Sequence record: MK327931.1
DNA length: 64,000 nt
From: Escherichia phage vB_EcoM_G17
Reading direction: 5' to 3' (one strand)
Position 1 is the stretch's first letter; each line of letters begins with the position of its first letter. The position numbers and the translations under genes were made by a program. The notes below the pieces were generated by a model, which saw only the letters and a list, made by a program, of their open reading frames with translations, searched no databases and had not been told where the DNA came from. Of the stretch, positions 1 to 25,300 are shown one piece after another.

Positions 1-26
1 TACAGAAGAAGCTTTTTATTAAAAGA

Positions 27-3000
27 TTGCCTGAGTGGATGCAAGGCTTAGAAGATATTCAAAAAGTCAGTGATGATGTTATTCAACAATGGTTTAATCC
101 GGCTGAAAACGAATTAGTTGACGGCTATATTGGTGATATGGGTTCTCCTGCCGCTGCTGGTAATATCTTCTTACATGAAAGTACTGTAGCACGTCAACTT
201 TATCAGTTGTCCACTGCTTACGTCTCAAAAAATGATGATTCGACAATTCGTTCAATTCAATTTTATGATGATCTAGTTGGATACATGAATCATTATGGAG
301 CACTAACCGATAATGAAAGCCGTTTGTTCAACGGTAAGTTTTATGCATGGACTCCAGCTATTAACCCAAATAAAATGAACAATTTTAGCTCATATCTTTG
401 GGATACTAAAAACTCTTATAATATTACTTCACCTGATTACATTGTAATGGAACGTGGAGCACTTAATGGTAATACATGGTCACTACAAAACTTTTGGTAT
501 ACTTTAGGTGAAACATTAGAAGATGGCTCAATATTAACTGAAGAATTAATGCAAGATTCACGTTTTATTCGTGCACGTGCACCAATTATTGAATATAATA
601 AAAATATTGAGCTAATTAACTACGGTACAAAATTCCGTGGAACTGTTGATCTGTTCTCTGATATTATTAAACCTGAAGATATCGTTCAAAAAGATATTAA
701 TAGTGGTATACGTATTGATGGTATTATTCCGCAAGATGGAATGCGTATTCTATTCACCAGTATTGGTAACAATGGTGAAAACAATAGAATTTATAATGTA
801 TATGTGAAAAAAATGCAAGATGGTACTCGTGTTTATGGTTTAGCACTAGATCCAGAAGAAGAAACCGAATCACGCCCAAGTGGTGAACCTCAAGATGGTG
901 ATGTTGTTCTAATCACTAAAGGTAATGAGTATGGTAATAGTTCTATGTACTGGAATGGATCTTTGTGGGTTCGTGCACAATCAAAAACTAGTGTTAACGT
1001 ATTCCCTAAATTCCAACTTTATGATCGTAATGGTATCAAACTTGACAACAGTACTACATATCCATCAAGTAACTTTAAAGGTTCAGAGTTGTTTGGTTTT
1101 AAAATAAATTACAACTATGCAACTGATAGTGTATATGGATATAACATTGAACTTGGTGATTATAATTATTACATTTATGAAAACTTTTTACAATCCCAAC
1201 GTTATACCTATGACCATCTTGGAAAAGAAGTTGAAATTGATGGTTTATACTATTATAACATTATTGATGAAAATAATGAAATGAATCTTCAAACCGATTG
1301 GGTTCGTTCAGAAGAGTACTCTAAACAATTTGTAAAACAAACTCCACAAGTCCAACGTACTGATATGTATCGTGTATTCAGTACTGTTTATGATATGGAA
1401 GTTTTTAAAGAACCAGTTGATGGTATGTATGCATATGTTATTGAAGTTGATAGAACATATCAGTACTATAAAGCTGACCGTGAAACTTATCTAGATTGGC
1501 ATCCAATTACTGGTGATGGTGTTCAGATTGTAAAATATGACCATACATTCGAATTGGCACAAAAAGTTTTAGATAATGATTCTGATATTATTGAAGTTGT
1601 GGTTGATGGTGTTGATGTGTCCAAATATACCAAAAATGTTTCAAAAGGTCAAGTACAAAGCATCACTCTAGATAGTACTGTAGAATTGGATGAAGATTCT
1701 GTTATTCAAATTAGAACTTATAGCAGTACTGTAACTCCTAATAAAGAATTAGGTGCATATGAAGTTCCAATCAACCTACAAAATAACCCATATAATTCTA
1801 ATATTATATACATTAACCAAGGTGACTACACTTTACATTTTCAGGATATTATTCAAAAGAACATTACACGTGGTTCTTCTGATGATTTCAATGACTATGA
1901 AGAACGTTTGGCTAAAGGATTGGTTAATAATGGCGTAGGTACTAAAATTATCCAAAATGAAGCATCTATGCTTCCATTGATGGCACATACTGCAAATGAA
2001 GATATTGATTTGTTTGAAGCAACTATGTTTATGCAATCTGAATATTTTAGATTCATTAATAAATTTAATACACAAATGCTTCGTATGTATGATGAAAATC
2101 CATCAGACTTTTTACAAAATAGTGCTGCAAACATTGTTGATGCAATTTTAACTACTATTAATATGGGACGTGATAGTTCATTCCCATTCTATTATGATAA
2201 TGTTGGAAGTACTTCTGGATTCATTCGTGCATTTATACCACCAACACCACAGTTCTTAGGTATTCTTCAAGCATATGTACCAGAAAAAGCGACATTCCTC
2301 ACTGCTGGTAGTAAACCAAGCTGTTATAACATCAGTCATACTGGTATTATTTCCAAAGCATACCGTGTTATCAATGGTGTTGATAAAATGGATGATGTTG
2401 TATATGAATTAGAAAATAGAATTTTTAATAGTATTGATAATAAATTCAAAGATGTTGATTACGTACCAGTATTGAATAGTGATGACCTTTTCCCTACACC
2501 ATATTTCACTAAAACTGAATATAGTGCTGAAGAGAAACAAACATTATTACTACGTGGATACATTAACTTCACCGCAACTAATGGTATCAGTAATAGTACA
2601 CATGATTATGATCCTAACAATTGGAGAACTTGGAACTATACTGGCACTTATTATGTAGTTAATGGTCAAAGTACTGAAATTCCTGCACGTGGTTCATGGC
2701 GTGCCATTTACACTGACCAATATGGTACATATCGCCCAGCTACCCATCCGTGGGAAATGTTTGGCTTTACACAACGTCCAACTTGGTGGAACCAAGAATA
2801 CGAACCAACGGCTGTTCAAGTTGGTGAACGTGATAGTGATGTTGTATATGTATATGAAGCACTTGTTATGAATGAGCAAGGTGATTTAGTTCCTAGTGGT
2901 CTTTGGGATATTGACGGAACTATTGGAGATAGCAGTACTGGAACTATTTTATTTGGTGATCGTCGTGGTCAATATGACAAATATAAAAGATTTGGTGTAC

Positions 3001-6000
3001 AGCCATTCAAAATTACAAAAACTGGAAATAAAACATCTTCTGGTATTGATATTTGTGTGGTTGAATATATTGCACCTGAAATTTTAGGTTTAGTGTCTGG
3101 ATCTTTAAATCATAGAGCAGAACCTTGGACATATGGTGATATGGGTGACATGGAATTTACATACATGAACACTACATTGTTTGCATATGACCAAATGATG
3201 CTTTTGTATAAAGCTAAACCAGCACAATTTGCTAACTATTTCTGGGATACCCGCAACGATAACTTAAAAGAAGTATTCACTGATGGTTCACAATTCCTTT
3301 ATGGTGATACACGTAAGCGTATTAATTTTGATAAAAATACAGTAGTTCATGGTGAAAATAGCACAAGAACAATTGGTTATCAAATGTTTGTAAGTGACCA
3401 TTTGATGTATCAAAATAAAAATATTACCACCAAGTATGGGGATGTAGTTCGTTCTTCTTATATAAATGTTGGTCATAAAATTGGAGGATTTACTAAAGCA
3501 GATCAGCTAACATTCAATGCTAAATCTTTCGGTCTTATTTCACAAGAAAACCAAACCATTGGTCTTGTTCGTTCTAATAATATCCGTGATGAGCAAATGA
3601 GTGCGATCAAAATTACTTGGAATGGTAGTGCATATCAGATTGATGGATATGATCTAGTTGGTGCTAAATTTAAATATAAACTTCCAGTAAAAAATGGTAG
3701 AAAAGTAACTCTTAAATTGGAAAACCGTAATGTTGTTCATTATAATGAATGGAAGTCTGAAGCTTCAATTGAATATGGTAAAGTTTTCAATAGTTACCAA
3801 GAAGTTTATACTTTTATTTGTGGATATGGTGAATATCTTAAAGAACATGGTTGGATTTTTGAAGATGTAAATGATAGTGGTGCTCAACAAGATTGGAACA
3901 CTATTGCTAAAGATTTCGTGATCTGGAGTCAGAATTCTCTAGTAACTGGTGAATTTATTTCTTGTACCCCAAGTGCTGCAAACGCTAAATTTGGGGCAGA
4001 CTTTGGTTCAGTACAATCTATTACGCAAAATAATGGTGGTGTATGGTCATTACTTGATGATAATAACCAAGGTATTCGCCAATATGAAATTGAAACTTCT
4101 CGTATTGGAAATATCTTCACTGTTAGAACTTTAGAATCTAATAAACGCATTGCATTGATTCGTTTAAGTTTGTGTTCATATGAACATGCTGTTATTTTTG
4201 ATGATAAAACTATTTTTGGTGATTACATTTATCAGCCAACATATGGTTCTATTCAAGAACTAATTAAAATGTATGGATATATTACTGGTTCATGGACTGG
4301 TCGCCTACAAGCTCCTGGATTTATTATCTTGGAAGCTGGAACACTACCATCATTTGAAAAATTAGTGTCGGATTTCCAACATTATTATGATAGTGAAACT
4401 CCAGTAAGTGATGTACAATTACAAGAGTTGTCAAACCATTTGATTGGTTATCAATCTCGTGATTATCTACAGCGTATGATTAGTAGTGATGTTAGTCGTG
4501 TTGATTTCTATAAAGGATTCATTCACGATAAAGGTACTAACCAAGTTTTAGAACGTGTACTTCGTGTTTCTAAATCATATGACACTGATGAATATAAAGC
4601 ATTACAAGAATGGGCATTTAAAATTGGTACATATGGTAATATTGATGGTAAGAAAAACCTTCAATTTAAACTAATCAATGACCAATTTAAACAACAACCT
4701 CAAATGGTTTCTTTTGATGTAAATGCAACTTCAAATGGTAATGGTAATCATATTGTATACTTCGGTGAGCAAGGTAAAGATCCTCGTTGGATTACACGTC
4801 CAAATGGTAAGTTCTCATTCCCAATGCGTAGTGGAAGAAGTGAAAACATCCAACTTCCAGATATTGGTCCAGTAACATTGGATGAAGTATCGTACACAAC
4901 AAAAGATTTCAGTACTGCATATAATGACCGCATAACTTATACTAATGGTAAAGGTGAAAATCCTGAATCTGTGTGGATGTTTAAAGACGGTAATGGTTTG
5001 TGGAACATTTTTGAATTGGTTGATACTAATGTACAAATGGTTTCTATAACACCTATTGAAAATACCGATGTGTATGCTGAACAATTTTGTAAAGTAACTT
5101 TAACTGATAATGTACCACTTGAAGATGGTGATTATTATTATTTTGTTGATGAAACTAACTTTATGCCAGATACTTTAACAGTAGAAAGTCAATATTATAC
5201 TGCTGGTTCTGATCCTAAAGTTATGGTAGTTCCATTTGACACTTCTATTGATATTGAATTTACTGATCCAGATACACGTCCACGTTTGTATCGTTATGTA
5301 TCACGTTTTGCCAGTACTGATGATCGTCAAGCTTACATTGACAAGAAATATAGTTTTAAAGCACCACAAAGTACTTTATTTGATCGTCCAACGACATATG
5401 ATGAACGTACTAACATTACTGAGCTATATCTAAACGTTTATGACCCAATTAATGGTGTTATTCCAGGTGCGGCTATGCAAAACGTAACATATACTTCACC
5501 AGTTGATCCTGCACAGTATAATAGTAATGGAGAGTTAATCCAGGCTTGGGGTGCTGATAAAGTTGGTCAAGTATGGTGGAACACTAGCACTGCATTTTAT
5601 TTGGATTATACTCGTGCAATTTATGACGCAGACGGTAATGTTGATATTGATGCAACCAATGAATACAAACGTTACAACTGGGGCCGTTTGTTACCACATA
5701 GTACCATTGATGTGTTAGAGTGGGTTTGTTCACCAGTTGAGCCATATAACTGGGACAAATACTGTAAAGATGTTGCTAAGAAAAACAAAAATAATACTAT
5801 GTATCTACCAAGTGGAACTGCACTTGAAGATAATTATAGTACATTTTTGGAATATGATAGTTCAACTGATAGTTATGTAACAAAATACTATTTCTGGGTA
5901 CGTGATACAATTTATGTACCACCACTACATACCAGAACGAAATCATGTACTGACATTGCTCGTATTATTAAAGATCCAACACAGCTAAACATTCCTTGGT

Positions 6001-9000
6001 TCGCTCCAATAAATGAAAACTCGTTTATTCTTAGTAATATGCAATTTAAAGTGAATGATGATACCAGTATTTTAACTGTTTCTTATTACATGGATAGTAC
6101 TGAAGTTGTTAAACATGACCAGTATCAACTATGTAAAGAAGGTGACAGCTATAACTTTAACCCACTAATTTGGGATTCAATGTGGAACTCACTAATTGGT
6201 CAAGAAACAACTGAATCAGGTTCTGTGATTAATTTATTATATCCAGATGTTGATAACGGTTTAGGATCAAACAAAACTTGGTTCCAAAATGTTATAGAAG
6301 CTCGTAGAAACTTTGTAGAAAGTGCTAATAATTATTATAGGTCACAAAACATAACCACTAATAGTGTTGTTATGGAAGATGTGTTTAATGTTAAAACCAC
6401 TGAAGTTAACCCTAATGAAGTTTCTTTCCGTGTGTTGTCTTACAATAATGAATTAGTTATTGCAGTTGAAAGTGATAAATTTAAAGAAAATGACGCTGTT
6501 ATTTTAAGTACTAGTGGATATCTACCAAATCCATTAACTTCTAGTGCTGTTTATTTTATTCACTTCGACGAAAATGGATATATTCAGTTAATGAATAGTC
6601 CAGCAAACGCGGGTAGTGTTGTTACTATAACGTTAGAAAACAAAGGTGAGGGACAACATAAAATGATTAAACAATCTGATTATGTTGAATCACTAGGAAC
6701 CTCATTAGACATGACTCAGTACTGGTCATATGCTGATTGGTATGATGTTGGATATGATAGTAACACGACTTATACTCAAGAGTCAAGCTTAGAAGATGCT
6801 AATACTAAAAACTACCAAGTTGGCGATATTATCAGAGTTACCGATAGTGAAAACATTTGGACATTGTATATTAAATCACAATCACGCGATTCAATTTATT
6901 GGAAAGCGATTGGTCGTGAAAACAGTACAGTTGAACTCAATGATATGCTTTACGCAGATTATAGTGTTCATAATGATAATGGTTCACTAAGCAATCGTGA
7001 AATCAACGTTCGTAAAGCACTAGCTTTACTCAAAAATTCTTTCGATTTACATCAAAGCGAAATTGTTTTTGATATGGTCAAATATGTACATGTTGAACAA
7101 AGTGTTGTGGATTGGGTATTTAAAACATCATATATCTATATTGTTGGTTTGGAACAATCATTAGTTCAAAACTATTCAAACGATAATTTGATTAATCAAA
7201 TTGTTGAATATTTTGAAGAAGTTAAACCTTATAGAACTAAAATTCGTTCACAAATAGAGCAAAAGACATCTGATGATGATTTAATAAAAGGTCTATGTAA
7301 TGATTTAGATCCTAATGGATATATTTTCGTTGATGGTTCTTGGATCAAAACTGAAAAAGATATTTGGGATTATGAGTACGCTCAATTTAATGAAATTACC
7401 CAAAAATGGGAACAGGTAGGTTCACTACCAAGTGATTTCGTTACACCAAATAGAAGATTCCAAGAAATTGATATTATTATGCATTATGATAATATTCAGT
7501 GTAAACCAAATGAAGATTTGGCAAGCATAAATGAATTAGTAAGTGTTAATAACAAATATCAATCCAATGAAAAGGATGCTGTTAGTAACTATGAATTACA
7601 ACGTTATATATATTCTTTCCCAGAATATAGTGAAGAAACTTTCGATCTTCTTATTGCTTATCAAATGCAAATCTACTATCCAGAATTGGATGTAACACTA
7701 GGAACAGCATATGGCGTTAACCAGTGGTATAAAGACCATGCGGAAGATTTAGAAGCAACTGATGAATTCACTGCTACATTGGAACGTGTTTATAAAGAAT
7801 CAACGCATAACGATATGTTTACTGACCTTAGACAATATGTTCAGTATAACACATTGGCAAACCGTTTGAAACTTTATAAAGATATAAGTGATGAGAAAAT
7901 TCACGATGAAGTTGGATGTGGATTTAGTGGACTTACTTATAATGACAATCCTAGTACTAGACTTCCATTAGGCTTTTCTTCTAGTAATGATTATAACTAT
8001 GGATATTTTGAAATAAGCAGTGAATTGTATCAAAAATACATTTCATTAATTAAAGATAAAAATCCTGACGCATCAGACTATGAAGTAAAAGTTAAACTTG
8101 AAGTTGAGTATGGTGTATATGTTTATCGTTATGATGAAGTAGGTGGTGATACCCGTTTCTATACTGATGCTATTCACGTATTAGCAGGTATGAGAGGGTT
8201 ATTCGACAAAGACGCTACTGATAAGTACGAAAAAGCTGAAGAGATTCTTAGTAAGACCCCAATTGATATCTATGCAATTACAATGATTCCACGAAAATAT
8301 GTTTACTTAAATGTTAACGGTGTATATCAAAGTATACCTGATGAACAAAGTATTGATGATTTCATGGAAGATTATTTTATCACAAATGGTGAAATGGTTG
8401 AACTAGCTGAAATAAATCTTGATGATTTACCACTAGATCAAAATAATCCAATGTATTCTGATTATCAATATATACTTGATAGTATTACTGAAGCTAAGTA
8501 CTTCAATGATATGAATGCATTTGATAACCTAGCATTGGAATCTCAAACTTCTTCAATAAAATGGGAAGTTAAAGATGATGAAGTTGATCCTTATATTGTG
8601 GATATATCTGACATAAACCCTTCTGGGCGTGATGTAGGTCAAATTAGATTTACAGTTGATGGATATGGGTTTGACAATGTATCTCTTGTACAATTACGTG
8701 ATAACAGCAGATATCAAACTGAAGGTATGGCAATTATCAATCCATATAAACATACAGAAGCAATTGTAAGTATTCCTTCATATGCTAAGATTGAAAATGA
8801 TATTAATAAAACAACATCGAAGTTTGATGAAAAATATTTCTATCGTGTGAGATCTATTAATAGCTTAACTGAAGCAGAAATAGTTGACAATGACCTATCT
8901 GATGGTGATAAGGTGATGATTTTCACTCCTGATGGTGAAGATTTTGTGAGATATCAAAATCACACATGGGAAACAATCTTGCGTGTATCTAACATCAAAA

Positions 9001-9926
9001 ACAATACAACTCCGATCCTATTCACTGTAAGAAATACAGGTAAGGAAACGATTGAATTGATTGATGAGAGTACTGGTGCAGTTCTCCGTTATGATAACAT
9101 CACTCTTGCACAACAAAATGAGCCAGTACAGCCTCTAGCATTGAACATTGTTCGTGTTAGAACATTTGCTGACCCTGAATTTGTCAAGAATGGTATTAAA
9201 TTGTATGAACAAAATAGAAATTACACCATTGATGTAATTAATTATGATGTTTTCTACGATACTACTTTAAATGGTGGTAAGTACAATGACGGAATAACAC
9301 CAGATGACGTTGACGTTTGGATAATCTCTAATGAAATATTTGATGTTGATGGAATTACTATCGATAACGGTTATAACTTACCAATTACGGGTGCGGGAGT
9401 TCTTAGTGAATTGGCAAGAACTAAAATGACTGATAGTTTAGAAATCAACGTTATCGAATATGATTCAAGTGTTATTCAACCGTTTAGAAATAATGAAGGG
9501 ATATGGGTTTATGGATTCCCAATGGTTGACGGTATGTATATCGGTGTTGTTGGTGGTACTGTTACTAACATCACAACCATTAGTGAAGAAAATACAACCT
9601 ATGTTTCTCAACCTAAATCAATAAGTCCTTATAGTATTAGAAATAATGTTTTATCCGGTTCAGCCGCAAACATGAATGATATTATATCGATTGGATATGA
9701 AAAAGTTGAAGTTAGAAATGCAAATAATTTACTCCGTGGTGTAATGTATAGTGCAGAACATGATTTTAAACTTAATACTACATATTCTTTCAATGGAATT
9801 AATTTAGGTAATTATGATATGTTAAAACGTTACACACAAAATAGTTACACTATAGATCTTTCAGTATACACTGATAGTCTACAAGTTAGTGGTAATGATA
9901 TTAAAAATATATTATTAGTTAAGTAA
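27..9926 (+). CDS. Giant 3299-aa protein of unknown function (probable virion-associated protein); start uncertain
   Basis: Single uninterrupted 9.9-kb ORF; N/D/Y/T-rich, no motif recognised by eye. Track start is TTG; first ATG is at 39; frame is open to position 3, so the gene may begin upstream of the window. Ends at a hairpin terminator. Confidence 0.8.
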   Translation: MPEWMQGLEDIQKVSDDVIQQWFNPAENELVDGYIGDMGSPAAAGNIFLHESTVARQLYQLSTAYVSKNDDSTIRSIQFYDDLVGYMNHYGALTDNESRLFNGKFYAWTPAINPNKMNNFSSYLWDTKNSYNITSPDYIVMERGALNGNTWSLQNFWYTLGETLEDGSILTEELMQDSRFIRARAPIIEYNKNIELINYGTKFRGTVDLFSDIIKPEDIVQKDINSGIRIDGIIPQDGMRILFTSIGNNGENNRIYNVYVKKMQDGTRVYGLALDPEEETESRPSGEPQDGDVVLITKGNEYGNSSMYWNGSLWVRAQSKTSVNVFPKFQLYDRNGIKLDNSTTYPSSNFKGSELFGFKINYNYATDSVYGYNIELGDYNYYIYENFLQSQRYTYDHLGKEVEIDGLYYYNIIDENNEMNLQTDWVRSEEYSKQFVKQTPQVQRTDMYRVFSTVYDMEVFKEPVDGMYAYVIEVDRTYQYYKADRETYLDWHPITGDGVQIVKYDHTFELAQKVLDNDSDIIEVVVDGVDVSKYTKNVSKGQVQSITLDSTVELDEDSVIQIRTYSSTVTPNKELGAYEVPINLQNNPYNSNIIYINQGDYTLHFQDIIQKNITRGSSDDFNDYEERLAKGLVNNGVGTKIIQNEASMLPLMAHTANEDIDLFEATMFMQSEYFRFINKFNTQMLRMYDENPSDFLQNSAANIVDAILTTINMGRDSSFPFYYDNVGSTSGFIRAFIPPTPQFLGILQAYVPEKATFLTAGSKPSCYNISHTGIISKAYRVINGVDKMDDVVYELENRIFNSIDNKFKDVDYVPVLNSDDLFPTPYFTKTEYSAEEKQTLLLRGYINFTATNGISNSTHDYDPNNWRTWNYTGTYYVVNGQSTEIPARGSWRAIYTDQYGTYRPATHPWEMFGFTQRPTWWNQEYEPTAVQVGERDSDVVYVYEALVMNEQGDLVPSGLWDIDGTIGDSSTGTILFGDRRGQYDKYKRFGVQPFKITKTGNKTSSGIDICVVEYIAPEILGLVSGSLNHRAEPWTYGDMGDMEFTYMNTTLFAYDQMMLLYKAKPAQFANYFWDTRNDNLKEVFTDGSQFLYGDTRKRINFDKNTVVHGENSTRTIGYQMFVSDHLMYQNKNITTKYGDVVRSSYINVGHKIGGFTKADQLTFNAKSFGLISQENQTIGLVRSNNIRDEQMSAIKITWNGSAYQIDGYDLVGAKFKYKLPVKNGRKVTLKLENRNVVHYNEWKSEASIEYGKVFNSYQEVYTFICGYGEYLKEHGWIFEDVNDSGAQQDWNTIAKDFVIWSQNSLVTGEFISCTPSAANAKFGADFGSVQSITQNNGGVWSLLDDNNQGIRQYEIETSRIGNIFTVRTLESNKRIALIRLSLCSYEHAVIFDDKTIFGDYIYQPTYGSIQELIKMYGYITGSWTGRLQAPGFIILEAGTLPSFEKLVSDFQHYYDSETPVSDVQLQELSNHLIGYQSRDYLQRMISSDVSRVDFYKGFIHDKGTNQVLERVLRVSKSYDTDEYKALQEWAFKIGTYGNIDGKKNLQFKLINDQFKQQPQMVSFDVNATSNGNGNHIVYFGEQGKDPRWITRPNGKFSFPMRSGRSENIQLPDIGPVTLDEVSYTTKDFSTAYNDRITYTNGKGENPESVWMFKDGNGLWNIFELVDTNVQMVSITPIENTDVYAEQFCKVTLTDNVPLEDGDYYYFVDETNFMPDTLTVESQYYTAGSDPKVMVVPFDTSIDIEFTDPDTRPRLYRYVSRFASTDDRQAYIDKKYSFKAPQSTLFDRPTTYDERTNITELYLNVYDPINGVIPGAAMQNVTYTSPVDPAQYNSNGELIQAWGADKVGQVWWNTSTAFYLDYTRAIYDADGNVDIDATNEYKRYNWGRLLPHSTIDVLEWVCSPVEPYNWDKYCKDVAKKNKNNTMYLPSGTALEDNYSTFLEYDSSTDSYVTKYYFWVRDTIYVPPLHTRTKSCTDIARIIKDPTQLNIPWFAPINENSFILSNMQFKVNDDTSILTVSYYMDSTEVVKHDQYQLCKEGDSYNFNPLIWDSMWNSLIGQETTESGSVINLLYPDVDNGLGSNKTWFQNVIEARRNFVESANNYYRSQNITTNSVVMEDVFNVKTTEVNPNEVSFRVLSYNNELVIAVESDKFKENDAVILSTSGYLPNPLTSSAVYFIHFDENGYIQLMNSPANAGSVVTITLENKGEGQHKMIKQSDYVESLGTSLDMTQYWSYADWYDVGYDSNTTYTQESSLEDANTKNYQVGDIIRVTDSENIWTLYIKSQSRDSIYWKAIGRENSTVELNDMLYADYSVHNDNGSLSNREINVRKALALLKNSFDLHQSEIVFDMVKYVHVEQSVVDWVFKTSYIYIVGLEQSLVQNYSNDNLINQIVEYFEEVKPYRTKIRSQIEQKTSDDDLIKGLCNDLDPNGYIFVDGSWIKTEKDIWDYEYAQFNEITQKWEQVGSLPSDFVTPNRRFQEIDIIMHYDNIQCKPNEDLASINELVSVNNKYQSNEKDAVSNYELQRYIYSFPEYSEETFDLLIAYQMQIYYPELDVTLGTAYGVNQWYKDHAEDLEATDEFTATLERVYKESTHNDMFTDLRQYVQYNTLANRLKLYKDISDEKIHDEVGCGFSGLTYNDNPSTRLPLGFSSSNDYNYGYFEISSELYQKYISLIKDKNPDASDYEVKVKLEVEYGVYVYRYDEVGGDTRFYTDAIHVLAGMRGLFDKDATDKYEKAEEILSKTPIDIYAITMIPRKYVYLNVNGVYQSIPDEQSIDDFMEDYFITNGEMVELAEINLDDLPLDQNNPMYSDYQYILDSITEAKYFNDMNAFDNLALESQTSSIKWEVKDDEVDPYIVDISDINPSGRDVGQIRFTVDGYGFDNVSLVQLRDNSRYQTEGMAIINPYKHTEAIVSIPSYAKIENDINKTTSKFDEKYFYRVRSINSLTEAEIVDNDLSDGDKVMIFTPDGEDFVRYQNHTWETILRVSNIKNNTTPILFTVRNTGKETIELIDESTGAVLRYDNITLAQQNEPVQPLALNIVRVRTFADPEFVKNGIKLYEQNRNYTIDVINYDVFYDTTLNGGKYNDGITPDDVDVWIISNEIFDVDGITIDNGYNLPITGAGVLSELARTKMTDSLEINVIEYDSSVIQPFRNNEGIWVYGFPMVDGMYIGVVGGTVTNITTISEENTTYVSQPKSISPYSIRNNVLSGSAANMNDIISIGYEKVEVRNANNLLRGVMYSAEHDFKLNTTYSFNGINLGNYDMLKRYTQNSYTIDLSVYTDSLQVSGNDIKNILLVK

Positions 9927-9934
9927 TAAAAAAA

Positions 9935-9967
9935 GGAGAGCATTATGCTCTCCTTTTCTTTTTTTAT
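9935..9967. terminator. Bidirectional intrinsic terminator between convergent genes
   Basis: Perfect 8-bp stem GGAGAGCA/TGCTCTCC with 3-nt loop, A-run upstream and T-run downstream; sits between the stop of the giant ORF (+) and the stop of clpA (-). Confidence 0.65.
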
Positions 9968-12252
9968 ACTAGTGCTTTATCTACAGCTTTGGTACGTTTC
10001 GGCTTAATATCGATTTTACCATCAATAACATCAAATGTAATGTTACCACCATTCACAAGTGAACCACACAACATTTCTTTAGCTAGTGGTACACGAATGT
10101 TTTGTTCAATGGTACGTTTCATTGGACGTGCACCCATACCAACTTTTACCCCATTTTTCGCAAGCCATTCACGTGCAGCTTTTGTCAATGTAACTTTAAC
10201 ATTACGGTCTTTGACTTGTTCATTCAAACCACCCATGAACTTATCAATGATGCTGTCAATAGCTTCACTGCTTAGGTCTTTAAACGTAACGATACTATCA
10301 ATACGGTTAATAAACTCTGGTGGCAAGAATGCTTTAATTGCCTTGTCCTGTGCAGTGTCACTACCGCTCATACCAATGCTACGCTTTGTTGAATCAGCCG
10401 CACCAAGGTTTGTAGTCATAATAACAGTTACGTTATTAAAATATACAGTTTTACCTTGAGAACCAGTCAGACGACCTTCATCCAAAACCTGTAGGAAGGT
10501 TAGTAGTACTTTACGATCTGCTTTTTCAATTTCATCAAGTAACAGTACTGCATTAGGGAACTGCTCAATTTTATCCAACAGTAAACCGTTACCAGAATCA
10601 TGACCAACATAACCTGGAGGTGAACCAATTAGTTTAGAAACAGTATGTTCTTGAGAAAATTCTGACATATCAAAGCGAATGAGTTCCGCACCAGTTGCGT
10701 CTGCTAATGCTTTGGTAATTTCTGTTTTACCAGTACCAGATGGTCCAACAAACATAAATGCACCCTGAACACTAGATTTGTCACGCAGTCCTGCACGAGC
10801 TACCATCACGTTATCAACTAATTTTTGAATAGCTTCCTCTTGACCGTATACACGTGAGCGTAGTGCATCTGGTAGATTACGCATACGATCACTTTCAGTA
10901 CATGCAACCACGTTGATATCCAAATTGGCAATACCAGCAACAACTTCTTGAATCAAATTGGCAGTAATAAGCTTACTATTGTTGTCACGTGAACGAACTT
11001 TAGCCGCAGCAGCATCCATTAGATCAATTGCTTTATCTGGGAAGTGCTTATTCTTCAGGAATTTATCACTGAGAGAAATTACAGCATCCATTGCATCAGA
11101 TGTGAACTCAACATTATGGAATTTTTCATACGTTGGTTTCAAACCATTAACAATTGCACGAGTTTCATCAATTGTCGGCTCAACTACGTCAATTTTCATA
11201 AAACGACGAGTTAATGCACTATCTTTCTCGATATTTTTACGATATTCATCATATGTTGTTGCACCAATTACACGAATCTCACCACGTGAAAGTGCTGGCT
11301 TAAGCATATTGCTCATGTCCATAGAACCATTACTTGCGGAACCAGCCCCAACCATAATATGAATTTCATCAATGAAAACAATAGTATTTTCACGTTTCTT
11401 TAGTTCTTTTAGCAAATTGTCGATGCGTTCTTCAAATTCACCACGATACTTAGTACCAGCAGTCAATGCACCAACATTTAGTGAAAGAATTTCAACGTCT
11501 TTTAGGTGTTCAGGTACGTTACCATCAGCAATAGCTTGTGCAAGCCCGTCGATGATTTGTGTTTTACCTACACCAGCTTCACCAGTGAGAATAGCATTCT
11601 TTTTGGTTTTGCGAGCAAGAGTCTCAATCAATGCAGACAATTCTTTCTGGCGACCAATCATAGGATCTAGTTTGCCTTCTTTTGCAAGAGCAGTTAGATT
11701 CGTTGTATAGTCTTCCAAACCTTTTTGTTTAGATGATTGCTGCTGTTGGGCCACTTTTTTATCTCCAATCGGTTCGTCATTAATACTTTGTAAGTTGATA
11801 CCCTTATCAAGTGACTCAACGTGTTTCTGTAATGCACGTGCAGCTTCAGTACAGCTAACACCTTCTTCTTTTAACGCAGCTTCTAGTGCTGTGTTAGGGA
11901 AAGACAGACATTCGAATAGAACAAAATATGCATCAATCGAAAAATCATCACTTTTTAGTTGTTCAATAACTGATTTTTTAGAAAGCTCATGTACAACGCG
12001 ATTCACTAGAAGTGAAGTGCGATTCGCGTCTTCATCTTTAACACTTTTTGGTGCATGTGGAACTGTTGTATTTTTAAGATAGTTCATTAGGCGGTTGTGC
12101 AGTTTGTCTGCATCAATGTTCATATCTTCAAATACGTTCTTGATGCTATCAATAGTCAGTACTGTGGCACTTACGTGGTCAATAGTCAAGAATGTATGAC
12201 CTAGAGATGTTGCCAGTTCGTCGCTTTTTTTGAACAATTGAGTAAGATTCAT
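9964..12252 (-). CDS. clpA: ClpA-like ATP-dependent Clp protease ATP-binding subunit (two AAA+ domains)
   Basis: Walker A GEAGVGKT (D1) and GPSGTGKT (D2), Walker B FIDEIH and [16 protein letters not shown] sensor motif; co-linear with E. coli ClpA by eye (N-domain, TTNL..DP.IGR.KEL, no M-domain); IGM tripeptide at the ClpP-docking loop position. Trimmed to ATG at 12252 (AGGAGA SD); track start 12273 is GTG. Confidence 0.9.
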
Positions 12253-12292
12253 GTATTCTCCTATGTGATTCACGTCACTCTAATTAATAAAC

Positions 12293-17932: not shown

Positions 17933-18042
17933 TGTTTAAGCCCTTTTAGTAGTGAACTTTCATTTATTTATTAATGATAACGAAATGTATTTTGTACTGA
18001 TAAATATTGGTATATGACATTAACTCATACAAGGGAAATATT

Positions 18043-19158
18043 ATGACAATTTCATTTAATGGTTCATGTAATAACTCCGGCATCAAAAGTCTAGTTATTA
18101 ATGGTGCTGGGCATTTAATTGTAACCTATGCAGATAACACAATTCAAGATTTAGGTCTTGTTGTAGGACAGAATGGCGAGAATGGTAAAAACTTTTATCC
18201 TAATGAGATTGGTTTTGAAATTCCTTCCGAACAATTTAAAGTTGGTGAACCACTTGGGTGGTGCTACTTAAGCTTGGCTAACAATACCAGTACTCTATAC
18301 TTTAAATCAAATGATGCACAAGATCCGACAAGTACATGGATTAGTGTTGAGTTTGGTAAAGGTGATACGGGTGAAGCGGGTAAGCCGTTCCACATTGATA
18401 GTGCTGGAACTACTTTCCCAACAACTGGTCTTTTTAATAACTATACATTTTATAATACTCAAGATGGTAAACTTTATTTCTATCAAAGTGTAACTGCTAC
18501 TTGGAGTGATGGTATACCTTTCCGTGGTGAACAAGGTCCGCGTGGTCGTTTCCATATTGATAGCAGTGGTGATCAATTTCCAAGTATTGAAAATCTTCCA
18601 GTTGATTATTGTTTTTATAACAACACTGATGGAAAACTATATTATGTTGATGAAGTAACTACAACTACCCCTCCTTCAAAAGAGTGGAGTGATGGTATTC
18701 TATTCCGTGGTAAAGAAGGTCAGCAAGGTATTCAAGGTATACAAGGCGAACCAGGTGCACCAGGTAAAGATACAATTTCTATTAGAAATACCATAGATAG
18801 CTCATGGACTAACGCACTATTAGTTATTGGTACATGTCCTGCTGGATATGTAGTTTCTAATATTGATGTAAACGTTATACAACCTTATTCTCTTCCAGTA
18901 ACTGATATGTTTGTACGTTTTGGTGGTGAAGCACAAGAAGATATTGGCGGGACGGTAATTGCACCAACTTCCTACTTTGATATCAATCGTCAGATGCGTT
19001 TTATTGTTAATGAAACTAATCATGCAGCATCCGATGATGATGAAATTATTTCATGTGTATTCAACGATTCTGTTAACAACAGTCCTTATGGAAAAATGGA
19101 AATTATTTGTACTCTTTCATGGCAAGCTCCTATCCAACCGATTCAAGATAATATTTAA
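18043..19158 (+). CDS. Collagen-like repeat-containing fibre protein
   Basis: G-x-x triplet run FRGKEGQQGIQGIQGEPGAPGKD; two internal ~60-aa repeats (HIDS.G..FP...DGKLY.Y); AGGGAA SD before ATG at 18043 (track start 18007 is TTG). Confidence 0.65.
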   Translation: MTISFNGSCNNSGIKSLVINGAGHLIVTYADNTIQDLGLVVGQNGENGKNFYPNEIGFEIPSEQFKVGEPLGWCYLSLANNTSTLYFKSNDAQDPTSTWISVEFGKGDTGEAGKPFHIDSAGTTFPTTGLFNNYTFYNTQDGKLYFYQSVTATWSDGIPFRGEQGPRGRFHIDSSGDQFPSIENLPVDYCFYNNTDGKLYYVDEVTTTTPPSKEWSDGILFRGKEGQQGIQGIQGEPGAPGKDTISIRNTIDSSWTNALLVIGTCPAGYVVSNIDVNVIQPYSLPVTDMFVRFGGEAQEDIGGTVIAPTSYFDINRQMRFIVNETNHAASDDDEIISCVFNDSVNNSPYGKMEIICTLSWQAPIQPIQDNI

Positions 19159-19172
19159 GGGAGGATGTCATA

Positions 19173-21314
19173 ATGGCAGTATTTTCTAATTTTGAAGGAA
19201 CTATGCAGCCCAAATTCATATTGGGGAAAAAAGGTGCTTCAATAAATTTTATCAATGATTCAGTTTCTATAAAAGATTATCTAGGAGAACAGTTCCTACC
19301 ACTGAAGGTAGGAACTTCATCTGACCCTAATTCAGCAGTTAACGTAAAATATCTTGAAGATAACCCTAATGCATTATTTGGTGTTGTACCCCCTACCGAT
19401 GATGTAGGAAAGAACAATAATACGTATTTTCAAATTGATGAAGATGGTATTGTTGATATTTTTGCAAAAAGTAATGGTACATGGGTAAAATCATTATACA
19501 TTAATAAAAAAGTTCTATCCAGTAAAAATGGTGGCGATTTCATCGGACTTATTACTGGAGGTACAGTTCAACAGGCCCAGTTTTATATAACACCAGAAGA
19601 ATTTGGTGCTAAAGGTGATGGCGAAACTGATGACACTGCTGCTGTAAATTTATGTGCTGCTTATGCTAAAGAAAATAAAATCCAAATTCAGGCTGGTGGT
19701 AATTACCGTATCAAAACTGCAATATACCTAGAAGATGTAACTTGGTTTGGGGGAACTATTACTGGTAACGGTGGTACTATGGTATCTGTTATTAATTCCC
19801 AAATACAATTTGCAACACTTACTGGATGTTATTTAAAATTCTTCGGTGGCGATGGTAAGTTTTATTTTAATAAATTTATAAACATCACAAGTACTGCTGC
19901 ATTTTTAATGCAAGGTATGACACAACCAGGAACAATAGATTTTTGCTTTAATGAAATGACCCAATGTAAGTATGGTGTTCTTCAACAAGGTACTGGTGAG
20001 AAAATGAAGGTTGGTAGATATTCATATAACCATATTCATGATATCTATGGTGATGCAATTGAACTAAACGTAATTAACTCACATTATCCTGATGGTTTTG
20101 TGATTGAAGGAAACGTAATTGAAAACGTTGATGGTTCTAACGCTCCAATCCCACTTTCAAACTGGGGCATTGGTATTGGCGTTGCTGGTTCTGGTCCTTA
20201 TGGTTTAGATGCACCAGATACACAATATGTCAGAAACTTTGTTATTAAAAATAACAGACTATATAATGTTAGACAATGTATACACGTTGAATTAGGAATG
20301 GACTTTAAAATACTTAATAATGAAGTTTATCCATCATCTTTAGTTTCTGTTGGTACTGGATTAACCACTGCTGGTGTTATAACTTATGGTTCGAAAGAAT
20401 TCATTATTGATGGGTTGACTGGTCATTTGCTTAATGATCCTTCTATCACAAATAGAATGGTTTCAATAAACTGGGGTGTAACTTCTGGTCGTTTTGCTGG
20501 ACCACCTAGAAACTTTAAAATTTCTAATCTCTATATTCCAGAGTCTTCTATACTTGTTTATACTTCCGGTTCTGATAATTGGTTAAATAATACAGAATTG
20601 AGCAATATCACTTGTTCTAAAATCCTTTGGCGTGGTTTGCCATCATCATCTAAATTTAGTGATATTAGAACTAAAGAATTAGATGTAATTGGTCAACACC
20701 TCTCTACCGAAGGCGAAGGTGGTGGTATCTATACTCGCTCTAAATATACTTATACTAATTGGACTAACTGTGTTGTTCAAGATGATTGTAATGTTTCAAA
20801 ATATAGTTTTTCTAAAATGTATGTAGACAGAATAGACCAATCATCTAATAACTTTAAAGTTACAACTGCAATCGATGGTACAGGTCACCGTGGCCCAGTA
20901 CTGATACCTGTAGTTGAGCAATATTATATTCCATACGATACTTTTCCTGGGGGACGCTATTTCTCTGAAGGCACGATTATTCATAAACAATCGGGTGGAA
21001 AATATATTGTAACTGTTGGTGGTTCTTTTTTCGGAAAATATGACACAATTAGACAAACGGTAGCAGGACAAACATACATAGAAGCATTGGGTGTGTCATG
21101 GGGTGAAAACCAATATGCAAAAGCTGCTGGTACTGAGATCATTATATCCGGTGCTGGTGAAAATGGTGGTGATTTGAGAACGTATATAACTCGTGCAGTG
21201 TATGTTGTAAACAACGTATATAGAATTGATATTGCAGATCCTATCATAACAGCAACTGCCGCTGGTGCAGCATTAAAAGCTGCCCAACCCGTAACTTACA
21301 TAACCCTACCATAA
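19173..21314 (+). CDS. Tail fibre/spike protein with beta-helix-like central region (possible depolymerase)
   Basis: N-terminal ~25 aa nearly identical to the next gene; central region rich in short N/G/I/V-containing strands typical of parallel beta-helix folds; GGAGGA SD. Confidence 0.6.
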   Translation: MAVFSNFEGTMQPKFILGKKGASINFINDSVSIKDYLGEQFLPLKVGTSSDPNSAVNVKYLEDNPNALFGVVPPTDDVGKNNNTYFQIDEDGIVDIFAKSNGTWVKSLYINKKVLSSKNGGDFIGLITGGTVQQAQFYITPEEFGAKGDGETDDTAAVNLCAAYAKENKIQIQAGGNYRIKTAIYLEDVTWFGGTITGNGGTMVSVINSQIQFATLTGCYLKFFGGDGKFYFNKFINITSTAAFLMQGMTQPGTIDFCFNEMTQCKYGVLQQGTGEKMKVGRYSYNHIHDIYGDAIELNVINSHYPDGFVIEGNVIENVDGSNAPIPLSNWGIGIGVAGSGPYGLDAPDTQYVRNFVIKNNRLYNVRQCIHVELGMDFKILNNEVYPSSLVSVGTGLTTAGVITYGSKEFIIDGLTGHLLNDPSITNRMVSINWGVTSGRFAGPPRNFKISNLYIPESSILVYTSGSDNWLNNTELSNITCSKILWRGLPSSSKFSDIRTKELDVIGQHLSTEGEGGGIYTRSKYTYTNWTNCVVQDDCNVSKYSFSKMYVDRIDQSSNNFKVTTAIDGTGHRGPVLIPVVEQYYIPYDTFPGGRYFSEGTIIHKQSGGKYIVTVGGSFFGKYDTIRQTVAGQTYIEALGVSWGENQYAKAAGTEIIISGAGENGGDLRTYITRAVYVVNNVYRIDIADPIITATAAGAALKAAQPVTYITLP

Positions 21315-22365: not shown

Positions 22366-25300
22366 ATGTACTCAATAAAAACTGACTTAGATATTACTGG
22401 TGCTGGTACGGTTGGTAAGGATCTTTTAGTCAAAGGAAATGCTGTTTTCAACAATAACCTAACTGTAAATGGTACTGTAACTTTTGCAAATGCAACTTTT
22501 ACTGCCATTGAATCATCAACTGCCAACATTACATCTACTTTAGATGTAGGTGGCAAAGCAACACTTTCTGGTGGTCTTGGTGTTGAGGGTAATACTACAA
22601 TCGGTAGTGCAGTTGTCGGGTCTGATACAGCAACAATTAATTCAAACGCTACCTTTAACGGTACTGTATCAGTTGGTTCTGATTTTACACAAACTGCTGG
22701 TACAACCACTCTACAAGCAACTAAAGTTAAAAACTTAGAAGTTGCTGAAACAACAGCATTTAAAGGTAATATTACTGCTGATGTTGGGACTACTGCTGCA
22801 TTTGATAAAATTACTGCTAATACCGCAGAAATTACTAATGTAAGTACAACAGATATTAGTAGTACTGGTACTGCTACATTTAACGATGTGACAATTAGTG
22901 GTACACTTGGTGGTGAGTTTAATCTATCTGACTTAAATGCAGTAACATTGAACGTTACTGGTGCATCTAACCAACAAGGTGCAGTAACTTTCGGTGCTAA
23001 CGTAACTGGTATTAACAGTACTGCTACTTTTAAAGACATTCGTATTGGTTCTAACTCTGAATCACAAACCTTCAGATTAAGCTTCCCTTACACTGCTCCT
23101 GGTAAACGCCCAACTGTTATTCTACAAAACGAAATTCAGTCCGAGCTAATGTCACCTGCAAACTTGACAGTATTGACCTCTGCTTCTTTTGGTAATGCGT
23201 CATTATCTTCTTATGGTATTACTGGTAATGGTCTAAACAAATTAGATTATCTAACAGTTTCTGGTAACAATACACAATCACCAGACACACCACTATTAGA
23301 AGTTCAAAAAGGAAAAACTAAAGTTGCTGACTTTGAAGTAACCGGAACTGCAACTATTCCAAATATCGAAAGTACTGGTACTGCTAATTTTAATAACATT
23401 AATGTTTCTGGTCTTCTTGGTGGAACGTTCCAACTAGACGATATTAATGCAGTATCTTTGAACGTTACTGGTGTAACTTCATTAGTTGGTGGTGTTACTC
23501 TTGGTTCTAATATTACTGGTTATAACAGTACTGCATCCTTTAAAGCTATCAGCTTAGGTCAAAATAGTCAAGATGCGGCAGTGAAACTAGGTTTTGGATA
23601 TACTGCACCAGGTCAACGCCCAACAGTTATTCTACCTAACGAAGTTCAATCAGAAGTCGTTTCTCCTTCTACATTGAACGTTCTTAAAACAGCAACTTTC
23701 GGTAACGCTTCTCTTTCCACTTATGGTATTACTGGTAACGGTCTAAACAAACTAGATTACCTAACTATTACTGGTAACGAAACACAAGCTCCAGGTACAC
23801 CATTCCTACAAGTTGGTGGTAAAGCAATTCTTAATGATGTTGAATTTACTGGAACAGTAACTGGACTAACTGTTGATGTTAGTGGGCAGGATCTAACACC
23901 TAATTCTGTTGTCGCGGCAGCAAATATTAAAGGTGCAACACTTGAAAGTACTGGTAACACTACCGTGGGTGCTAAACTAACTGTTACTGGTGATATTGCT
24001 GGTACAACTGCAACTCTTTCTGGTGCATTATCCGCTGGTTCAGTAAGTTCTGGTTCTATTACTGGTACAACTTCTGTATCTGCACCAACAATTAGTGCAT
24101 CTACTGAAGTAACGGCCCCTACTATCACTGCGAGTGGAACTGTAAGTGGGCAAACAATTAACGGTACTAATATTAGTGCAACAACTCTGACTGCACCAAC
24201 TATTAGTGGTAATACTAACTTTACAGAAAATGTTGATATTACTGGTAGCTTAACTGTTGGTTCTCTAGACTTGAGCACTACCGATATTAATGCTAAATCA
24301 ATCACTACTACTGCTGGTGCAACTATTGGTGGTGATTTAGTAGTTCAAGGCTCTTTTGATTTATCAGCAGCCGACCTTAATGTTAAATCATTAACTACTT
24401 CTGGTATTGTTAAAAGTAATGATCTTGTTAATGCTAACGTACTTCCAGTACTTAATAGTACTACCATAACGGCAACTACTGTTAATGCTGATGATATAAC
24501 TGTTACCGGATCTGCTAATTTGGGTACAATTTACTCAAGCTCATCTGTTCTAGTTGGGTCAACTTTAACTGTAACTGGTGAAACTACAACTGCATCGTTG
24601 GTTACCCCAACCATTTCAAATGCAAGTGGTGTCACTATTTCCAATAATACAAATGTAACTGGTGACCTAACTGTTACTGGTGCAGTTATTCCAGGCTCTA
24701 TCGATCTAGCAACAACTGATGTTAATGCTAAATCCATTACTACTACTGCTGGTGCAACTATTGGTGGTAACCTAACTGTTAATGGTACAGTAGATCTTAC
24801 TACGGCTGATGTTACTGTCAAATCTTTAACTAGTACTGGTGCAATTGTTAGTAATGAATCCACAATTAGTAGTGTTCTACCTAAACTTCAAAGTACTGAT
24901 GCAACTATTGCAACCCTTGGTTCAACAACTGCAAATATTACTAATTTGAATGTTACTGGTGCATCTACCGTAGCTGACGTAACTTCTTCAGGTAAAGTTA
25001 AAGCAGTTTCTGTAGAAACCCCAACAATTAGTAACGTTGATGGTGTATCTATTTCCAATAATACATCTATTACTGGTGACCTAACAGTTTCTGGTACAGT
25101 AACACCAGGTGCAATTGATTTGAGCACAACTGATGTAAGTGCAAAATCCATTACTACTACCGCTGGAGCAAATATTGGTGGAGATCTTGTTGTTTCTGGT
25201 ACAGTTGATTTAAGTGGTGCTGATGTATCTGTTAAATCTCTAACAAGTACTGGTATTATTACAGTTAGTAGTGCAGAAGGTATCAACGTTCTACCTAAAG

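Follow-up and report, generated by a model that had tools for sequence, protein, structure and literature searches.

What does a single uninterrupted reading frame of 9.9 kb encode in a phage genome? The question is raised by the first positions of a 64,000-nt stretch of DNA from Escherichia phage vB_EcoM_G17 (MK327931.1), the whole of which was analysed here and is referred to below as the window. A mechanical listing of open reading frames (ORFs) places a plus-strand ORF of 3299 aa at 27–9926, starting from a TTG codon. Our comparison of this giant gene with its relatives suggests, at a probability of about 0.6, that its product is a scaffold of the baseplate wedge and periphery in the gp7 position, the core of which would form the outer baseplate and the variable surface parts of which would dock fibres or contact the cell. 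The giant protein is probably the positional, and probably also the functional, counterpart of T4 gp7, P2 gpI and TssG of type VI secretion systems (T6SS), being about three-fold larger than gp7, to which no homology was detected. Databases and three proteomic data sets already contain the gene; new here are the positional assignment, the absence of gp7 homology and of any relative among solved folds, and the modular build and extent of the family.

Gene boundaries and presence in the virion

The reading frame is open from base 3, and translation from the window edge meets no in-frame stop before 27, so that the true 5' end lies beyond the window, as the initial annotation had suspected. Megablast aligns window positions 1–12000 with Escherichia phage Sharanji (OR545507.1, position 207631 onwards) at 100% identity, and with PBECO4, 121Q, phAPEC6, SP27 and further ~350-kb jumbo phages of Asteriusvirus at 99–99.9%; Sharanji is an Asteriusvirus, within the PBECO4/121Q/phAPEC6 group of RaK2-like jumbo myoviruses. 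The identical Sharanji record settles the boundary: the giant gene is annotated there as the coding sequence Sharanji_gp376 (207585..217556, 9972 nt), which begins with an ATG 46 nt upstream of the window's first base. The window holds the 3' 9926 of these 9972 nt (1–9926, plus strand), with codon 17 at base 3 and the stop codon at 9924–9926, and the full-length product, gp376, has 3323 aa, a mass of 382.0 kDa and an isoelectric point of 4.6. Independent evidence is provided by PHROG 10938 ('virion structural protein', 3324 positions), which is matched end to end over profile positions 17–3324 with 5761 bits; since the match begins at position 17, 16 residues are missing from the window.

The giant ORF is a real, constrained gene that has already been catalogued. 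Given the base composition of the region, a stop should occur about once in 12 codons, and the probability of 3307 stop-free codons is ~1e-120. The ratio of nonsynonymous to synonymous substitution rates (dN/dS) of the gene is 0.058 against UE-S1 (dS 0.59) and 0.086 against BF17 (dS 1.03), and lies at 0.02–0.13 in each 300-codon window of the gene, the C-terminal third included. Furthermore, ~60 full-length homologues at 44–86% identity hold a length of 3310–3361 aa. The stop statistics, the dN/dS values and the homologue lengths together bear out the single uninterrupted 9.9-kb ORF of the initial annotation; its description as exceptional for a phage stands in general, but not within the clade, where the giant gene is the rule. 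A splitting of the ORF by frameshifts, which had been allowed for, is not the common picture either: among the 25 records listed by megablast, 19 carry a single feature for the giant ORF together with its ClpA-like neighbour, two have no annotation, and only four, all of Salmonella phages SD-* (OR699181–OR699183 and OR699188), divide it into 2–5 hypothetical proteins. Two of these four records align in three pieces at 99.4–99.5% identity, and assembly indels, as a candidate cause of the split annotation, would fit better than real gene fragmentation. A sequencing artefact was rejected in view of at least 20 independent isolates and strong purifying selection.

Published mass spectrometry (MS), a note in the record of Pseudomonas phage PA5oct and the PHROG 10938 match support the giant protein as a component of the virion. 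The DNA of phAPEC6 is 99.9% identical across the giant-gene region, and phAPEC6 gp245 ('hypothetical protein', 381.88 kDa) was identified from 17 unique peptides, at a coverage of 7.6%, by electrospray ionization tandem MS (ESI-MS/MS); it adjoins gp244, a 'baseplate wedge' protein of 131 kDa with 21 peptides (PMC7247149). In Pectobacterium phage CBB, whose homologue (P0030) is 58% identical to gp376, CBB_236 was found with 21 peptides and adjoins CBB_237, also called 'baseplate wedge' (PMC5259590). The PA5oct homologue has 3857 aa, shares ~28% identity over the core and bears the RefSeq note 'ESI-MS/MS'. Across the family the records read 'hypothetical' or 'virion structural protein' throughout, and no structural or functional description of the giant protein beyond MS detection was located in the literature.

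The giant gene in the baseplate-wedge block

The gp7 position is indicated by gene order. The giant gene stands directly after gp25-like and gp6-like genes at six of six loci, namely Sharanji, four metagenomic relatives (L003, L004, L007 and L008) and PA5oct. At all six it therefore takes the place that characterizes the gp7/gpI/TssG class, next after the gp6/J/TssF-type gene in a gp25-containing block. The T4 order for comparison is 53-5-...-6-7-8-9-10-...-15, and the P2 J–I and T6SS tssF–tssG gene orders place gpI and TssG in the same slot. The PA5oct locus reads hub/lysozyme, wedge (gp25), wedge (gp6-like, 1319 aa), giant gene, two small genes and a T4 gp10-like gene, and the products of this block were detected by MS throughout except for one of the small genes. 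Since the giant gene lies here between the gp6 and gp10 equivalents, it occupies the slot of T4 gp7.

In Sharanji, the block extends upstream of the window. It comprises gp369 (L001:4393-5121), a virion protein of 243 aa referred to below as neighbour X (~250 aa); the gp53-like gp370 (PF11246, PHROG 7145); gp371 (L001:5450-7696), a virion protein of 749 aa referred to as neighbour Y (~700–890 aa in relatives); gp372, a gp5-like hub protein with OB domain, beta-helix and lysozyme; gp373, a lysozyme; the gp25-like gp374 (PF04965); and, directly upstream of gp376, the gp6-like gp375 of 1153 aa (PHROG 219, E = 1e-20). A gp375-type protein has been called 'baseplate J-like' (PMC11895373). Downstream, beyond an antisense ClpA-like gene, lie genes for a virion protein of 501 aa and a gp15-like tail completion protein (PF16724), followed by a tail/tail-fibre cluster that has an 1841-aa fibre. 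X carries an RRVRLRPK...GLVWPYTPTI motif, and distant relatives have kept both X and Y in their baseplate module. In the metagenomic relatives, at ~25–28% identity, the triad of gp25, gp6-like (Pfam DUF8360) and giant gene is kept in four of four, the gp6-like stop and the giant start abutting or overlapping. In L003, Gp34-type and S74-type fibre genes are found 3' of the giant gene.

Several results weigh against a counterpart of gp7. The gp7 Pfam domains PF21428, PF21456 and PF21427, all three of which are present in 120 of 120 listed T4 gp7 homologues, are unmatched by the giant protein even at E <= 1 (hmmscan), and alignment of the giant family (A5) with a 16-sequence gp7 alignment (A6) by hhalign gives a probability of 0.1% (E = 0.49). 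Searches by BLASTP, family hidden Markov model and hhalign against T4 gp5, 6, 7, 8, 9, 10, 11, 12, 13, 14, 15, 53 and wac were null, gp7 included, as was a search with a profile of the N-terminal module (A7) against the same T4 proteins and gp25-54. Neither gp7 nor gpI nor TssG chains occur among the fold matches of the AlphaFold2-modelled residues 17–2416, and paralogy of the giant protein with its gp6-like neighbour is undetectable by hhalign. Ordinary-sized relatives of the N-terminal module were not found either, an 18-sequence profile matching only contig-end fragments of the giant family and nothing in the PDB. In addition, a 25-Å map of the phAPEC6 tail does not localize the giant protein (PMC7247149). 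These null searches rule out classing the giant protein, as judged from sequence, within the gp7 family. The reach of such searches was calibrated with the gp6-like family, the identity of which is secure: it reaches T4 gp6 only at E = 0.004 (21-sequence search) and P1 BplA at E = 0.01 (PDB). As the gp6-like family is barely detectable against T4, failure to reach the faster-evolving gp7 counts only weakly against an equivalent function.

The missing gp7-type signal in sequence and fold searches also speaks for a different arrangement, in which the giant protein is a peripheral baseplate or fibre-network protein, bolted on the outside in the manner of phiKZ gp27/gp26/gp139 or T4 gp8/gp10, and X or Y completes the (gp6)2 heterotrimer. 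We regard this arrangement, the foremost rival of the wedge scaffold, as possible but unlikely. In its favour, X and Y belong to the same conserved module and were assigned no role by the searches, with no match in Pfam, NCBIfam, the PDB or T4 hub/tube proteins; they could be equivalents of gp27, gp29, gp48 or gp54, or one of them the true gp7 counterpart, which again weighs against the giant protein in that place. The best fold hints for the giant protein, weak as they are, point to fibre-adaptor (gp10-like) domains, and phiKZ has a wedge partner, gp128, that does not adjoin gp87, and a periphery assembled from separate proteins (PMC13250141). Against it, the slot right after gp6 is the canonical gp7/gpI/TssG position by the T4 order, and L007 keeps gp25, gp6-like and giant genes together though the hub genes are not adjacent and X and Y are not nearby. 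Moreover, X and Y likewise show no similarity to gp6-like proteins or T4 gp7.

Architecture of the giant protein and its proposed role

The domain searches leave gp376 without a recognized relative. The whole protein has no significant Pfam match (sub-threshold DUF6042 at E = 0.099 only) and no match in NCBIfam, and PDB sequences are matched neither by the single sequence (phmmer) nor by an 18-member family profile. Self-BLAST of gp376 reveals no internal repeats, and BLASTP against the other window ORFs and the upstream baseplate proteins reveals no paralogues. No polymerase, peptidase, lysozyme, transglycosylase, pore-forming or membrane-insertion fold or motif was found by Pfam, NCBIfam and fold searches, in agreement with the initial annotation, which had seen no motif of the first three kinds. 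A fusion of ordinary domains, which it had considered as a contrary outcome, was rejected because no ordinary domain is recognized. The proposed richness in N, D, Y and T holds strongly for Tyr (7.2% in gp376 versus 3.65% in neighbouring ORFs) and modestly for Asp and Asn, whereas Thr is below its level in the neighbours (7.0 versus 9.2%); Trp is at 1.6 versus 0.9%, and gp376 holds about 50 Trp and 240 Tyr in all.

Two AlphaFold2 models, built on 23-sequence alignments, together cover residues 17–2416, to which the structural statements here refer. The model of residues 17–1216 has a predicted local distance difference test score (pLDDT) of 80.9 and a predicted template modelling score (pTM) of 0.68, and the model of residues 1217–2416 has a pLDDT of 76.5 and a pTM of 0.54. 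Both are multi-domain and of mixed alpha/beta build, with ~24% helix, 23–29% strand and no helix exceeding ~30 residues, and are thus not purely beta, which corrects the beta-like character first ascribed to the protein. The fold matches of the second model are generic small beta-barrels only and, as far as the models go, the folds of gp376 appear to match nothing solved so far.

The modelled build also bears on two other roles. Tape-measure proteins consist predominantly of long alpha-helices and span ~0.15 nm per residue. A tape-measure or tail-length-determining function, for which the size alone and the lack of a tape-measure annotation in the window could be cited, is scarcely credible: on the modelled helix and strand content, with no helix beyond ~30 residues, it is effectively refuted, and 3323 residues imply a tail several times longer than the actual ~120–130 nm. 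It is also very unlikely that the 'hairs' or whiskers on the phAPEC6 and CBB tails, their collar decorations or some other extended structure there consist of the giant protein. Both phages do carry unusual sheath fibres whose proteins have not been assigned (PMC7247149, PMC5259590), and pilin- and adhesin-like beta-domains are among the weak fold matches. These hairs were, however, reported as atypical features of CBB and phAPEC6 (PMC5259590, PMC7247149), whereas the family spans RaK2, PA5oct, Atu_ph07 and hundreds of metagenomic phages; neither internal repeats nor coiled-coil-like long helices were found, and the gp25/gp6 gene linkage points to the baseplate.

BLAST mapping of relatives onto gp376 divides the protein into conserved blocks and variable segments, all on the plus strand of the window. 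The N-terminal module (residues 1–150, of which 17–150 lie at 3–404) lies at the very N-terminal end of every relative, ranks with the best-conserved stretches and contains a predicted helix at residues ~20–47 followed by a conserved, low-confidence linker at 47–86; it is a candidate anchor into the wedge. After about residue 150, between blocks 1 and 2, lies a hot-spot at which relatives insert 80–500 aa. Core block 2 (residues 158–750; 426–2204) consists mostly of small beta-domains followed by a helical domain, and core block 3 (residues 759–1740; 2229–5174) is mixed alpha/beta. The variable linker (residues 1741–1814; 5175–5396) is the main insertion hot-spot of the family: at ~1740–1815 relatives carry 500–1700 extra residues, FG-GAP repeats included. 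Core block 4 (residues 1815–2440; 5397–7274) contains the Trp/Tyr-rich invariant motifs VWWDTST..., YEWV.SPV.P and YYFWV, and one homologue of 2780 aa (P0072) stops directly after it. The C-terminal region (residues 2441–3323; 7275–9923) is lineage-specific and found only in RaK2-like relatives (>=44% identity); these ~880 residues are absent or replaced in distant members, though purifying selection persists in them (dN/dS 0.07–0.13). The conserved core of the family amounts to ~2450 aa.

Conservation and pLDDT are uncorrelated over 240 ten-residue blocks (r = -0.10). The two most conserved stretches of gp376 are residues ~100–190 and ~1400–1570, and inside the second of these lies the sole long low-confidence segment, residues 1407–1546 (4173–4592), with a pLDDT of 28–50. 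The linker at residues 47–86 is likewise conserved yet poorly modelled. Selected solely by high conservation combined with low pLDDT, the two segments are candidate inter-subunit interfaces, which may fold only on assembly.

The family is large. A word-indexed search yielded 199 homologues of 2780–5638 aa, and an exhaustive search with residues 17–1216 as query yielded 995 representatives at 50% clustering, 587 of them with E <= 1e-30; almost all representatives have 2–6.3 thousand residues, the short exceptions being few and confined to tiny contigs. Named carriers include all RaK2-like genera, the PA5oct group, Atu_ph07, RsoM2USA, Xoo-sp13 and RAS14. The CBM5/12 (carbohydrate-binding module, CBM) and FG-GAP matches mapped in two relatives (P0093 and P0096) fall in variable insertions and in the tail, and LamG-type and Gly-rich modules are also present among family members. 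CBM5/12 and FG-GAP modules are typical of externally exposed proteins.

In this regard, the second half of the original proposal, that the protein is virion-packaged and injected, fares differently from the first. Packaging is supported by the MS data of phAPEC6 and CBB and by the PA5oct note, whereas injection is at odds with the wedge-block context, the exposed-type modules and the lack of an enzyme or pore fold. Ejection into the host with the DNA, by analogy with the N4 virion RNA polymerase or T7 gp16-type proteins, would suit the very large size, the presence in the virion and the absence of a function in any record. It nevertheless seems highly improbable: the gene lies within a baseplate-wedge block at six of six loci, polymerase, transglycosylase, peptidase and membrane-insertion folds or motifs were not found, and relatives carry carbohydrate-binding and FG-GAP modules. 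The compact multi-domain alpha/beta build, with its many Trp and Tyr residues, would also be unlike that of a protein unfolding through the tail tube.

For the wedge scaffold in the gp7 position, we infer the baseplate location, the copy number, the partners, the docking of fibres and the relay of a signal as follows. Each wedge would contain one giant copy (six per virion), fastened by its conserved N-terminal module, and possibly also by the conserved but poorly modelled segment 1407–1546, to a pair of gp6-like gp375 chains as well as to the gp25-like and gp53-like proteins. The ~2450-residue core, with its many small alpha/beta and beta domains, would supply the outer baseplate mass, which in T4 comes from gp7 domains and gp8/gp10/gp11. 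The insertion hot-spots and the C-terminal ~880 residues would be surface-exposed, serving to dock the system of branched tail fibres, to contact the cell envelope, or both. Through such docking, fibre binding could be relayed via the giant protein to the wedge ring and trigger sheath contraction. A bolder version, which we hold to be rather doubtful, is that a single 380-kDa chain, its folds lacking a solved relative, replaces the multi-protein outer baseplate of T4-type and phiKZ-type phages as an evolvable platform, in which conserved scaffold blocks alternate with fixed hot-spots for the swapping of carbohydrate-binding and adhesion modules, and as a host-range determinant, segment 1407–1546 forming a new wedge interface unrelated to the gp7/TssG core bundle.

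Candidate signals lie on both sides of the giant gene. A terminator-like hairpin lies 3' of gp375 and is followed by CATAAATA, a copy of ATAAATA placed 43 nt before the giant-gene ATG (L001:14911-14918), and a GGAG stands 8 nt upstream of this ATG. At 9931–9957, a hairpin with a 12-bp stem and flanking A- and T-runs is terminator-like on both strands and separates the giant gene from the convergent ClpA-like gene; a terminator is annotated there in UE-S1. The ClpA-like gene (9964–12273, minus strand), 37 nt from the giant gene, encodes a 769-aa ATPase with two AAA+ domains (PHROG 4871, 'ATP-dependent protease'). The adjacency is seen in RaK2-like records and not in L003, L004, L007, L008 and PA5oct, and it is conceivable that the ClpA-like protein is a chaperone for folding or assembly of the 382-kDa protein.

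Further observations concern the window as a whole. ATAAATA occurs in nine copies, of which seven sit 35–58 nt upstream of a same-strand start codon (examples at 17971-, 18000+, 28780+, 40406-, 40931-, 44642- and 47716-, the signs giving the strand); the copy at 18000 was counted relative to the annotated gp384 ATG at 18043. The heptamer resembles a late-promoter element in which the preceding base is A, G or C and never T. The T4 late-promoter consensus TATAAATA has 0 copies in the 64 kb versus 9.5 +/- 3.3 expected. Downstream of the giant gene, a 713-aa protein (19173–21314, plus strand) matches PHROG 6117 ('colanic acid degradation') with tailspike-like N-terminal matches, and a tail-fibre protein of 1841 aa (22366–27891, plus strand) has seven separate PHROG 4549 matches; the two look like part of a branched receptor-binding apparatus. 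The GC skew changes sign at ~30–33 kb, where gene orientation turns from mostly plus to mostly minus, and no tRNA or tmRNA genes are found within the window.

Significance and comparison with known systems

To our knowledge, a gp25-(gp6)2-gp7 wedge core is common to every contractile injection system examined to date. The place of gp7 in RaK2-like and related jumbo phages is taken by a protein three times larger, detectably unrelated to gp7 and without a fold match in the PDB. With about a thousand clusters at 50% identity, the giant family is probably among the most widespread large phage structural proteins that lack a structure or an assigned role. If the wedge scaffold is correctly assigned, cryo-electron microscopy of jumbo-phage baseplates would gain a concrete target, the branched depolymerase fibres to which RaK2-/K64-1-type phages owe their appeal for therapy would have a candidate docking platform, and the clade would have a phylogenetic marker gene in metagenomes. 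If a single chain indeed forms the platform, the giant wedge protein would itself help to determine host range throughout a jumbo-phage clade that is very large and mostly uncultured; if the protein is merely peripheral, it would be an ordinary, already catalogued structural gene.

Among known systems, the N4 virion RNA polymerase (gp50) resembles the giant protein in its similar size and in being carried in the virion. N4 gp50, of ~3500 aa, is the classical injected giant virion protein and has its own gene layout. Unlike N4 gp50, the giant protein has no RNA polymerase motif or fold, a T7-like single-subunit RNA polymerase being absent by Pfam and by fold searches of the models, and its context is the baseplate wedge. 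The phiKZ baseplate carries a periphery of gp27, gp26, gp139, gp130 and gp157 on a gp87x2/gp128 wedge, in which gp128 is small (PMC13250141). The phiKZ platform is thus made of many separate proteins, whereas one 382-kDa chain is proposed here, and there is no sequence relationship between them. The T4 gp10-like adaptor domains of branched receptor-binding systems, such as the N-terminus of CBA120 TSP4 (PDB 7RFV/7REJ) and G7C, are among the closest known systems.

The likeness to T4 gp7 (PDB 5IV5), and to P2 gpI, Mu gp48 and TssG as its minimal equivalents, lies in the gene position, right behind the gp6/J/TssF-type gene, gp25 and gp53 being part of the same block. Members of the gp7/gpI/TssG class join two gp6-type chains in a heterotrimer with a core bundle and a trifurcation unit. 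The giant protein has 3323 aa versus 1032 aa for T4 gp7, and P2 gpI and TssG are far smaller still. Unlike gp7, relatives of the giant protein possess insertion hot-spots with CBM and FG-GAP modules. Both T4 gp7 and the giant protein are structural proteins of the virion, the giant protein being the largest of its wedge block, and the PA5oct giant gene resembles T4 gp7 in having gp10-like and fibre genes after it.

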